From a virus (Duplodnaviria > Heunggongvirae > Uroviricota > Caudoviricetes), in the IMG/VR virus record IMGVR_UViG_3300032296_003759: a DNA stretch of 64,000 nucleotides; one strand, given 5' to 3'. How positions within the stretch are numbered: the first letter of the stretch is position 1; every line of letters starts with the position of its first letter. The notes beneath the pieces were generated by a model, which had not been told where the DNA came from, made no database searches, and saw only the letters and a program-made list of their open reading frames with translations. A program made the translations under genes and the position numbers. Below are positions 35,736 through 37,145 of this stretch, piece by piece.

Positions 35736-35772
35736 TTTAAAAATAGGAAGGGAGGATTTTTATTCCTCCCTT
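35736..35772 (-). terminator. rho-independent terminator closing the accessory cassette (AAGGGAGGA-tttttat-TCCTCCCTT, then TATTTTT on the minus strand)
   Basis: 9-bp perfect stem plus T-run, read directly. Confidence 0.65.
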
Positions 35773-35792
35773 ACCTTAGATCATCGAAACTT

Positions 35793-35972
35793 TTAGTTTT
35801 GTAAGCTTCTCAGATAATTTGTTCTTTCAGCTTTTAAAGCATTCATTACTGTTGTAACTGTTTTAACTGAACAACCAAACTTCTCAGCTAATCTTTCTTT
35901 ACCCCATTTGAAATAAGAATTGTTGTTAAGCAAATGGTTTGTGATCGTTTGTGTCATGGACATTTTTTTCAT
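35793..35972 (-). CDS. small helix-turn-helix DNA-binding protein (59 aa), not in the ORF track
   Basis: Manual translation gives MKKMSMTQTITNHLLNNNSYFKWGKERLAEKFGCSVKTVTTVMNALKAERTNYLRSLQN. The segment LAEKFGCSVKTVTTVMNAL is HTH-like. It is followed directly by a terminator. Confidence 0.5.
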   Translation of the reverse strand: MKKMSMTQTITNHLLNNNSYFKWGKERLAEKFGCSVKTVTTVMNALKAERTNYLRSLQN

Positions 35973-36046
35973 TTTTTTAATTTTTAAAGTTATGAATCAA
36001 TAACACCACGAAGATAAGCGAAGAAAATTAATTCTCCAAATTTTTT

Positions 36047-36472
36047 TTATAAATTTATTAAAAGTAATGTAAGATTATATCCAGAATGTAATAATACTGA
36101 GGATATATAAGAGTAATTATTTTTTATATATACCATAGAAAAAATTAGACCAAGTACTCCTTGTATTAAAACTCCATCATGTGATTCACCATGTCCCCAC
36201 CCAAAGATACATGAAGACATTATAATTACTGGTATAACATATTGATTACCAATACTTTTTGCTATTGTAATAGGACCATATCTATAAAGAGCTTCTTCCC
36301 ATAAAGGGGCCCATATACAAAGTATAAAGGCAATATAGTAAAAAGAGTCAGATTCCTCCGACTCTCCTTCTACTTGATGATAACCTATTTGTGAAAAAAA
36401 ATAATCTACAACGAGAATCCAAACTAAACATAGAATATAACCAAAAATAATATTTTTAATTTTTTTCCACAT
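36047..36472 (-). CDS. minimal CPBP/Abi-family (CAAX protease-like) intramembrane metalloprotease, 141 aa
   Basis: All three CPBP signature motifs are present in order: WEEALYR (EExxxR), FGWGH (FxxxH), HSGYN (HxxxN). They lie in predicted TM helices. Confidence 0.6.
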   Translation of the reverse strand: MWKKIKNIIFGYILCLVWILVVDYFFSQIGYHQVEGESEESDSFYYIAFILCIWAPLWEEALYRYGPITIAKSIGNQYVIPVIIMSSCIFGWGHGESHDGVLIQGVLGLIFSMVYIKNNYSYISSVLLHSGYNLTLLLINL

Positions 36473-36490
36473 TAATTTGGAAATGTTAAA

Positions 36491-36625
36491 TTATTTTACT
36501 ATAGCTGTATCAATAGCTACTGAATCAACTATAGTTGTATCAACTGGTTCAGATACATTTACTTCTCCTGATCCACAGGAAATTAAAGTTACAATTAGAA
36601 TCAATAAAAATACTGTTTTTTTCAT
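36491..36625 (-). CDS. 44-aa lipoprotein (signal peptide plus lipobox LISC), not in the ORF track
   Basis: MKKTVFLLILIVTLISCGSGEVNVSEPVDTTIVDSVAIDTAIVK. 15 nt upstream of the CPBP gene. Confidence 0.45.
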   Translation of the reverse strand: MKKTVFLLILIVTLISCGSGEVNVSEPVDTTIVDSVAIDTAIVK

Positions 36626-36640
36626 ATTTATATTTGTTTT

Positions 36641-36886
36641 TTAATCTATTATATCTGTAAAAAATCCTTTAGATGTAAGATCTTCTTTATTAGCTGCTGC
36701 TCTTTTTTCTGCTGCTGCAATTTCTTTATCTGTAAACAGAAGACATCTTTCATTCTTTCCATCAGCATCTTCCACCCATACAGAAATATACCAGGGTTTA
36801 GCATTCGAAAACTTTTTCTTTTCTGTATTCCAGACTCTTACTAGTCTTCCTGCTTTAATTTTTACTTTATCAATTAAACTTGCCAT
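36641..36886 (-). CDS. hypothetical protein (81 aa)
   Basis: ORF with ATG start, operon-packed. Confidence 0.5.
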   Translation of the reverse strand: MASLIDKVKIKAGRLVRVWNTEKKKFSNAKPWYISVWVEDADGKNERCLLFTDKEIAAAEKRAAANKEDLTSKGFFTDIID

Positions 36887-36889
36887 ATA

Positions 36890-36982
36890 TTAAGGTTTTA
36901 ATGGTTTTATTGGCCTTGTAGGAGGTGTTGCTGGTCTAGGTTTTCCACAACCACAACCAAAGAGTGCATCATTTTTTTTCAT
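36890..36982 (-). CDS. tiny ORF (30 aa) encoding a Lys/Pro-rich peptide with CGCG and PRP motifs, not in the ORF track
   Basis: MKKNDALFGCGCGKPRPATPPTRPIKPLKP. Its stop lies 3 nt before the ATG of the 81-aa ORF. Promoter-like motifs lie just upstream. Confidence 0.25.
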   Translation of the reverse strand: MKKNDALFGCGCGKPRPATPPTRPIKPLKP

Positions 36983-36991
36983 AAAAAAGAT

Positions 36992-37038
36992 TATTTACAC
37001 TGTAAATATACAAAATTATTGTCTAATTTCAAAATTTA
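36992..37038 (-). promoter_or_regulatory. promoter-like region of the accessory cassette: inverted repeat TATTTACA-c-TGTAAATA plus two TAnnTTTG-type -7 boxes (TAATTTTG at 37011-37018, TAAATTTTG at 37030-37038, minus sense)
   Basis: Read directly. The Bacteroidota sigma-A -7 consensus TAnnTTTG is established knowledge. Confidence 0.4.
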
Positions 37039-37042
37039 TTTG

Positions 37043-37113
37043 AGGAAGTAATAGGAATCGAACCTATGATGAAGCTTTTGCAGAGCTCTGCCTTACCGCT
37101 TGGCTATACTTCC
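37043..37113 (-). tRNA. tRNA-Cys (anticodon GCA)
   Basis: Minus-strand sequence GGAAGTATAGCCAAGCGGTAAGGCAGAGCTCTGCAAAAGCTTCATCATAGGTTCGATTCCTATTACTTCC+T. It has a 7-bp acceptor stem, a D-arm, anticodon loop CTGCAAA (U33, GCA), T-arm TAGG-TTCGATT-CCTA and a U73 discriminator typical of tRNA-Cys. Confidence 0.85.
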
Positions 37114-37114
37114 A

Positions 37115-37145
37115 ATAAAAAACCCTTAACTCAGAGAATTAAGGG
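37115..37145 (-). terminator. hairpin plus T-run immediately upstream of the tRNA (CCCTTAA-n9-TTAAGGG, T6 on the minus strand); terminator or processing site
   Basis: 7-bp stem, read directly. Confidence 0.45.

Follow-up and report, generated by a model that had tools for sequence, protein, structure and literature searches.

A mosaic island of small conserved genes, with a predicted minimal CPBP protease, in a variable slot of a freshwater crAss-like phage

In an uncultivated crAss-like phage from fresh water, what fills the gap between the tail genes and the phosphoesterase gene, and do the genes in it belong together? The locus lies in a 64-kb stretch of this phage's DNA (the window); positions given below for the island are window positions, and all its features lie on the minus strand. 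A first-pass annotation had described the gap as a self-contained cassette with tRNA-Cys, open reading frames (ORFs) of 30, 81, 44 and 59 amino acids (aa) and the gene of a minimal CPBP protease (here a 141-aa ORF) between terminators. All of these features are present, on the minus strand. The terminators are real, but the bounds had to be moved: a sixth micro-gene, encoding a 27-aa Cys-rich peptide (pep27, 37174-37257), had been overlooked between the two upstream terminators, and because it fills that space the island starts at ~37333. The island extends from 37333 to 35738 (~1.6 kb), with the tail genes on one side and the phosphoesterase gene on the other, and this gap in a crAss-like structural region, mostly invisible to standard gene callers, holds six genes under selection, four of them shorter than 60 aa. 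Of the anatomy described here we are highly confident. For the overall interpretation, a mosaic accessory island in a hot spot combined with a function at the cell envelope, we consider the chances evenly balanced.

Three diverged relatives carry the whole island (L001, L037 and L040; related loci are cited by L numbers), and their CPBP proteins are 67-87% identical to that of the window. In these relatives the gene order is the same, start, stop and frame of all six ORFs are preserved, and lengths differ by in-frame indels only. Ratios of nonsynonymous to synonymous substitution (dN/dS), calculated by the Nei-Gojobori method for the window and the three diverged relatives at a synonymous divergence (dS) of 0.1-1.2, are 0.08-0.37 for pep27, 0.11-0.43 for the 30-aa peptide (pep30), 0.03-0.22 for the 81-aa protein (p81), 0.31-0.64 for the 44-aa lipoprotein, 0.17-0.26 for the 141-aa CPBP protein and 0.14-0.17 for the 59-aa helix-turn-helix (HTH) protein. 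Judged by these substitution patterns, all six are genes of the expressed type under purifying selection, and the small ORFs proposed in the first-pass annotation are conserved in frame. The contrary explanation, that they are chance reading frames in an AT-rich spacer around the tRNA and a single real gene (that for CPBP), could appeal to the ~30% GC content of the region and to the four ORFs of only 27-59 aa that have no significant family matches. We rejected it on the conservation of start, stop and frame in four genomes at this divergence, with dN/dS of 0.03-0.64 and in-frame indels only; the 342 homologue clusters of p81 and the relatives of pep27 and pep30 in more distant phages also speak against it, and its probability is negligible. 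An Rfam search of the region matched only the tRNA.

The features, from the tail side to the phosphoesterase side, are as follows.

37378-38475, minus strand: left flank, 365-aa tail-fibre-like protein with Cys-rich N-terminus, last gene of the tail block (ORF; homologues in the same position in L001, L015 and L023)
37304-37333, minus strand: terminator T1, end of the tail operon (hairpin scan; -11.9 kcal/mol; near-invariant in four relatives)
37267-37297, minus strand: promoter-like motif ATTTGG-N17-CTTATATT upstream of pep27 (conserved in 4/4 relatives; alignable with the copy before the HTH gene)
37174-37257, minus strand: pep27, 27-aa peptide with five Cys, MVMNQNKYEPCCTQCPIEGGCIICIKK (ORF; length and Cys conserved)
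37112-37146, minus strand: terminator T2, after pep27 (hairpin scan; -13.1 kcal/mol)
37042-37113, minus strand: tRNA-Cys (GCA) (ARAGORN; Rfam RF00005, 66.4 bits, E 1e-13)
37005-37032, minus strand: sigma-70-like promoter TTGAAA-N16-TATATT before the four-gene operon (10/12 positions match; 4/4 relatives)
36890-36982, minus strand: pep30, 30-aa peptide (ORF)
36641-36886, minus strand: p81, 81-aa cytoplasmic protein, a highly conserved, promiscuous phage gene (ORF)
36491-36625, minus strand: lipoprotein precursor, 44 aa, lipobox LISC (ORF)
36047-36472, minus strand: mini-CPBP, predicted Rce1-like intramembrane protease of the glutamic type, 141 aa and five helices, catalytic motifs complete (ORF; PF02517)
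36011-36041, minus strand: promoter-like motif again, ATTTGG-N17-CTTATCTT, preceding the HTH gene (conserved in 4/4 relatives)
35973-36006, minus strand: 34-nt invariant block with the palindrome GTTATtgattcATAAC (35989-36004), directly before the HTH start codon (four relatives)
35793-35972, minus strand: 59-aa probable HTH protein, backbone gene paired with the phosphoesterase gene (weak HTH matches; synteny)
35738-35772, minus strand: terminator T3, after the HTH gene (hairpin scan; -18.6 kcal/mol, z -3.5; kept in relatives)
34441-35724, minus strand: right flank, 427-aa calcineurin-like phosphoesterase/exonuclease, followed by crAss tail-ring genes (phrog_22398 and phrog_284)

The likely layout is tail operon, T1, a promoter with pep27, T2, tRNA-Cys, a promoter with pep30, p81, the lipoprotein and CPBP, a promoter with the HTH gene, and T3. 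A scan for terminator-like hairpins found seven in a 7-kb stretch, compared with 2.3 +/- 1.4 in shuffled sequences. The three hairpins of the island (37333-37314, 37146-37122 and 35772-35748, with the folding energies listed above and z-scores from -2.1 to -3.5) are all retained in relatives, and the T2 stem has undergone compensatory changes in L001 and L040.

The TAnnTTTG promoter motif of the first-pass annotation turned out to be uninformative: 97 +/- 10 matches would be expected in the window, and 119 are present. The relevant site, TAATTTTG at 37011-37018, lies inside the sigma-70-like promoter. The site was rejected as evidence of a Bacteroidota-type promoter, as the motif is frequent by chance, is retained here in only two of the four relatives and lies only 11 nt from the nearest upstream TTTG. 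In TTGAAA-N16-TATATT itself, both hexamers and their spacing are conserved in 4/4 relatives. The other promoter-like pattern, ATTTGG-N17-CTTATnTT, matches exactly two sites in the window (0.02 expected), the same two from which the pattern was derived; one lies ahead of pep27 and the other ahead of the HTH gene, and both are found in 4/4 relatives. The 34-nt block before the HTH start codon exceeds the neighbouring coding sequence in conservation in the alignment of relatives. Its palindrome, which has a single exact copy in the window, is a candidate operator, and a look-alike matching 13 of 16 positions is present at the 5' end of pep27 (37239-37254). Because of the shared two-copy motif and this look-alike, the HTH protein might control both pep27 and the HTH gene.

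Comparison of relatives anchored on the phosphoesterase gene (40-85% identity) showed that the flanks of the slot, the tail gene on one side and the HTH and phosphoesterase genes on the other, are conserved at 40-85% aa identity, and that the cargo between them differs in L002, L010, L015, L016, L017, L018 and L023. In particular, the slot holds 17 tRNAs in L016, 19 tRNAs and an HNH gene in L017, a 409-aa LeuRS-like fragment (5857-7086) with tRNA-Arg(TCT) (7911-7982) in L002, a lysozyme and other ORFs in L018, only a pep30-like ORF and a 64-aa ORF in L015, and CPBP with different neighbours in L010; L023 shares these tail genes, after which come CPBP, a 40-aa ORF, a pep27-like peptide and 21 tRNAs in turn. 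By its gene content, the slot can be classed as a hypervariable hot spot for tRNAs and accessory genes in this crAss-like lineage. With the same flanks and different cargo in related phages, the first-pass suggestion of a variable moron, as opposed to core structural genes, holds.

The suggestion of a self-contained unit fared otherwise. The comparison reveals a mosaic of small genes that appear to be independently mobile, and not one module, since p81 is present or absent independently of the rest, a pep30-like ORF occurs without CPBP in L015, and the lipoprotein does not accompany CPBP in 22 of the 23 other clusters.

The HTH gene was assigned by the first-pass annotation to the cassette as its dedicated regulator. 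The HTH nature of the 59-aa product agrees with matches that are all below threshold (HTH_11, 18 bits at a cut-off of 25), but the gene is retained in L015, L017 and L002 without CPBP, the lipoprotein and p81. In L001, L010, L015, L017 and L002 its homologues immediately precede the phosphoesterase gene. The gene stands beside the phosphoesterase gene with or without CPBP and has its own conserved promoter-like element, and by synteny we thus place it in the backbone, as part of the neighbouring phosphoesterase module. Paralogy of the HTH protein and the phosphoesterase is not claimed: a shared ..P.Y...G..KL..[KR][FW].C pattern is visible by eye only, and BLASTP of the HTH protein against the phosphoesterase N-terminus produced no alignment.

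The slots of two relatives contain further ORFs of note. The 409-aa ORF of L002 resembles by eye a truncated leucyl-tRNA synthetase. The L016 array includes a tRNA with the CTA anticodon (amber suppressor; 3112-3184, called tRNA-Pyl by ARAGORN), which hints at stop-codon recoding in the L016 lineage, and an ORF at 3213-3677 that resembles by eye a PTH2-type peptidyl-tRNA hydrolase.

The largest gene of the island encodes the mini-CPBP. Its product matches PF02517 with an E-value of 1.6e-12 (48 bits, cut-off 22.4), residues 44-134 aligning with positions 4-92 of the 93 in the profile. Invariant across 37 homologues are E59, E60 and R64 (EExxxR), F90, G91 and H94 (FxxxH), and H129 and N133 (HxxxN). 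The AlphaFold model (pLDDT 94) has five helices, one N-terminal helix and a four-helix catalytic core; this predicted fold superposes on Rce1 and SpdC, the best structural match being SpdC in its complex with the SagB glucosaminidase. A Foldseek search of the model against the PDB returned only noise, and the CPBP profile found no match among PDB sequences. By profile, motifs and modelled fold the protein is a member of the CPBP/Rce1-like family, as the first-pass annotation had proposed for a minimal CPBP protease, and its predicted fold and invariant catalytic residues are those of an active Rce1-type protease.

When 1.84 billion representative proteins were searched with the CPBP profile, 128 clusters of relatives were identified at E<1e-30, rising to 456 at E<1e-10. 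Of the matches listed, nearly all are only 125-190 aa long, and the short matches in the 128 clusters therefore define a populous clade of minimal CPBPs, ~140-165 aa in size. Its members come from viral and metagenome contigs, and proteins from Patescibacteria metagenome-assembled genomes are related only distantly (31% identity). A tblastn search of 50,697 deposited phage genomes revealed no copy of CPBP, and there was no match among PHROGs. The clade thus appears, from the origin of these sequences, to be confined to uncultivated phages. A literature search found no description of CPBP in crAss-like phages or of CPBP recurrently embedded in tRNA arrays, and nothing relevant on CAAX proteases in superinfection exclusion or on PF02517 in phages; the literature does contain a prophage whose integration site lies in a host CPBP gene.

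The genomic neighbours of CPBP were surveyed in 34 further loci grouped into 23 clusters (at least 70% identity). A tRNA lies 69-452 nt from CPBP in 9 of the 23 clusters, as well as in the window's clade, and many of the contigs in the other clusters are too short to judge; these are raw counts for CPBP loci alone. The tRNAs are on the CPBP strand in eight of these nine clusters, and most of these CPBPs sit within arrays of 4-21 tRNAs. Such proximity could mean that the mini-CPBP works together with phage tRNA arrays, perhaps as a counter-measure connected with translation takeover, in which case the window would hold a reduced array-plus-CPBP unit. We consider this quite improbable: no mechanism links a membrane protease with tRNAs, the arrays hold unrelated cargo (HNH and GIY-YIG endonucleases, small ORFs), as expected for recombination hot spots, and each partner occurs without the other (arrays without CPBP in L016 and L017; CPBP without tRNAs in L010, L024, L026 and L027). 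The island's own tRNA-Cys(GCA), the only tRNA within the window, is also present in L001, L037 and L040. The Cys-rich 365-aa tail-fibre-like protein, together with pep27 and pep30, may explain why this is the sole tRNA retained.

Other CPBP loci point to the cell surface. In three large phage contigs, L012 (1796-5264) and L021 and L022 (4956-8400), CPBP directly follows tRNA-Ile and is the first gene of a cluster encoding a glycosyltransferase, a PglD-like acetyltransferase, PhyH and a DegT-like protein, which suggests surface-glycan modification. In L026 and L044, CPBP is located downstream of small membrane proteins.

The N-terminus of the 44-aa protein in the island, MKKTVFLLILIVTLISC, looks like the signal peptide of a lipoprotein, lipobox included. 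The lipobox, MKKTVFLLILIVTLIS followed by Cys, is conserved in four relatives, in which the signal peptide and the CGSGE start of the mature part are fixed. The mature part is ~27 aa long (27-33 aa across relatives), acidic and composed of (V/I)D(S/T)-type repeats, and changes in repeat number vary the total length between 44 and 50 aa, making this the fastest-evolving gene of the island. Its similarity to the PG1828 family lipoprotein of NCBIfam is weak (20 bits, cut-off 50). The family numbers only six clusters, all restricted to this clade, and outside the window's clade a lipoprotein gene lies directly upstream of CPBP in one of the loci surveyed (L052). The first-pass idea of a lipoprotein and a CPBP/Abi protease forming a module thus has no wider basis than this clade and the one other locus.

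The lipoprotein signal and lipobox with their fast-evolving mature part, the CPBPs heading glycosyltransferase clusters and those following small membrane proteins led us to an envelope theme. The island would be accessory cargo in a hot spot between the last tail-fibre-like gene and the HTH-phosphoesterase pair, and its cargo would comprise three units: pep27, preceded by a promoter-like motif of its own and flanked by terminators; a lone tRNA-Cys, presumably a remnant of the tRNA arrays found in the same slot of relatives; and a tightly packed operon of pep30, p81, lipoprotein and mini-CPBP behind the conserved sigma-70-like promoter. The three units would be physically linked without being obligately co-functional, with the HTH protein standing outside them. 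The predicted protease, in the cytoplasmic membrane, may cut a host or phage membrane-associated protein, and the short, fast-evolving predicted lipoprotein, whose gene lies ~1 kb downstream of the tail-fibre genes, would be exported to the envelope. The most likely benefit would be that superinfecting phages are excluded or that the infected cell is protected. That the operon alters the envelope of the infected cell, with one of these benefits, is a proposal we make tentatively.

Several observations weigh against it. PADLOC models gave no match to the island proteins at E<=1, apart from 12-bit noise for the HTH protein, and CPBP has no PHROG match. The mature lipoprotein, 27-33 aa of low complexity, falls well short of the known exclusion lipoproteins in length and is not homologous to them. 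The commonest neighbour of CPBP is a tRNA array and not an envelope gene, so an envelope function leaves the link with tRNAs unexplained.

A function at the envelope could also mean lysis. The lipoprotein would then act as a spanin-like component of the outer membrane, with CPBP as membrane partner of a cell-wall hydrolase, or as its regulator, much like SpdC with SagB; SpdC in that complex is the best structural match of CPBP. Scattered neighbours fit this possibility: an amidase-like gene lies two genes upstream of CPBP in L024, CPBP follows holin-like small membrane proteins in L026, and a lysozyme occupies the same slot in L018. Nevertheless, CPBP retains all catalytic residues, unlike SpdC, the island encodes no inner-membrane spanin partner, holin or endolysin, and the clade-restricted lipoprotein lacks the Pro-rich character of known outer-membrane spanins. 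A role in lysis is accordingly highly improbable.

The two micro-peptides raise another possibility. In pep27, both the length and the five Cys are invariant across four relatives, and its CxxC-x5-CxxC pattern suggests zinc binding; the C-terminus consists of Cys and three further residues (CIKK). The family comprises peptides of 27-30 aa with four or five Cys and the core QCP..G..C.[IV]C, which end 3-4 residues past the last Cys. They adjoin CPBP and tRNA arrays that include tRNA-Cys in L023 (5629-5721) and L044 (3696-3785). Such peptides are too short for standard gene callers. In pep30 (30-34 aa), an invariant N-terminal L[FY]GCGCGKP[RK]P is followed by a Pro/Thr/Lys-rich tail of variable length, and the pep30-like ORF of L015, YGCGCGGKKPP, lies at 4262-4360. 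In pep30 itself, the stretch GKPRP...RPI is reminiscent of drosocin and other proline-rich antimicrobial peptides, a likeness that we presume to be compositional. Neither pep27 nor pep30 has a hydrophobic signal peptide, a GG-type leader or a family match.

Rce1 trims CAAX tails, MroQ processes AgrD, and CPBPs of the SagE type accompany Cys-rich toxin precursors. The mini-CPBP might similarly trim pep27 or pep30 to yield a mature phage peptide acting as a toxin, signal or immunity factor. Both peptides are under purifying selection, the pep27 tail has the length of a CAAX box, and pep27-type peptides lie within ~1 kb of CPBP in three lineages that have CPBPs of just 43-45% identity (the window, L023 and L044). 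However, most CPBP loci lack a nearby pep27-type peptide, the pep30-like ORF of L015 occurs without CPBP, and pep27 forms a separate transcription unit bounded by terminators. Moreover, the residues past the last Cys number three or four and are not of the aliphatic-aliphatic-X type, the island has no prenyltransferase, cyclodehydratase, radical-SAM enzyme or exporter, and the arrangement in three lineages may reflect descent and not function. We judge such peptide processing unlikely. If it did occur, pep27 and CPBP would make up a CAAX-type peptide-maturation system in a bacterial virus. More generally, the mini-CPBP could be a phage-specific enzyme with a dedicated partner, either as a co-inherited component of the tRNA island serving translation takeover or counter-defence, or as the processing enzyme for pep27 acting as a CAAX-tail mimic; taken as a whole, this proposition strikes us as distinctly unlikely.

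The remaining gene of the operon, p81, has a history of its own. Its homologues form 342 clusters, of which the 120 listed are 66-93% identical to p81, and besides proteins of crAss-like phages they include proteins of 72-79% identity from unrelated myovirus-like contigs of 98-286 kb that carry sheath and baseplate genes. In such contigs p81 follows a gene for a TSP3/zincin-like lipoprotein (p81 at 5001-5246 in both L003 and L007). Since p81 is also absent from one close relative in which the genes for the 30-aa peptide, the lipoprotein, CPBP and the HTH protein are all retained, its presence in the island is best read as an independent insertion. It has no family annotation, and neither a profile search of PDB sequences nor tblastn against the 50,697 deposited phage genomes produced a match. 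A protein conserved to this degree among the matches listed thus spans unrelated freshwater phages and has no homologue in deposited phage genomes. In one population contig of the phage, p81 is called with 53 aa only, which may be a truncation.

The phage was identified as crAss-like by matches to CrAss_Ring_2 (49 bits), CrAss_Ring_1 and Band_7 in genes downstream of the phosphoesterase gene and by the match of the large terminase (TerL) to phrog_6681. The nearest deposited relatives of the phosphoesterase are from Cellulophaga phages, and the signal of the island lipoprotein weakly resembles lipoprotein families of Porphyromonas and Riemerella; on these two similarities, a host among Bacteroidota is plausible. 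At least 22 metagenome contigs, up to 146.8 kb long, contain the identical lipoprotein. The five that were fetched are 99.85-99.9% identical to the window and represent the same phage, an identity too close for an estimate of pN/pS. In a blastn comparison of the region with deposited phages, the tRNA alone gave a match, and a first metagenome scan with the phosphoesterase alignment yielded no match.

Among the neighbouring genes, the 365-aa tail-fibre-like protein has nine Cys in its first 33 residues and no match in Pfam and PHROG searches. The 278-aa protein of the tail region (38498-39334) ends in poly-Thr/TTTTTEEI repeats, whose number differs from that in L001 (243 aa). A 174-aa SPFH/Band_7 protein (82 bits; 31731-32255) directly follows the crAss tail-ring genes, in the same order in all relatives examined.

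Three elements appear to be new here: the clade of minimal phage CPBPs with its habit of occurring in tRNA arrays, the Cys-rich micro-proteins, and the highly conserved p81. The CPBP clade is large, uncharacterised and often embedded in such arrays, and should the protease turn out to act on a defined peptide or envelope substrate, no tractable member of the Rce1 family would be smaller. The island genes as a whole are clonable starting points for studies of host manipulation by abundant environmental Bacteroidota phages.

How does the island compare with known systems? Superinfection-exclusion lipoproteins such as Llp of T5 and Cor of phi80 and N15 are encoded beside receptor-binding or tail genes. 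The island similarly has a small lipoprotein gene with a lipobox and a fast-evolving mature part, ~1 kb downstream of the tail-fibre genes and under an operon promoter, and by this analogy superinfection exclusion is possible. Homology is lacking, as the six clade-restricted clusters have no Pfam or PHROG matches, and the mature peptide, only 27-33 aa of acidic (V/I)DS repeats, has no sequence similarity to Llp or Cor. Bacteriocin and cytolysin loci pair a Cys-rich precursor with a CPBP, as in SagA and SagE of streptolysin S or in the Abi immunity of class II bacteriocins, and the island resembles them in having Cys-containing micro-peptides near an intact CPBP. It differs from them in that the micro-peptides carry no leader or secretion signal, that no modification enzyme, processing peptidase or ABC exporter is encoded between 35700 and 37400, and that peptides and CPBP also occur separately. 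The likeness to bacteriocin immunity drawn in the first-pass annotation is not borne out, with no leader-bearing or secreted peptide, exporter or PADLOC match.

Within the CPBP/Rce1 family (MmRce1, 4CAD; SpdC, 6U0O, and MroQ of S. aureus; the Abi immunity proteins PlnI and SkkI), the mini-CPBP shares the PF02517 match, the motifs and the predicted fold, and differs from Rce1 and SpdC, with ~250 aa and eight helices, in having only 141 aa and five helices. With phage tRNA and moron islands the locus shares variable content, promoters and terminators of its own, and the slot occupied by the 17-21-tRNA arrays of L016, L017 and L023. Blocks of tRNA genes are known in crAss-like genomes, with up to 26 tRNAs in Zeta crAss-like phages (PMC12386605), and the first-pass statement that the arrangement is not a described feature therefore holds for CPBP and the peptides but not for the slot. 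Compared with such tRNA islands, the slot of the window combines a single tRNA-Cys with five small protein genes.

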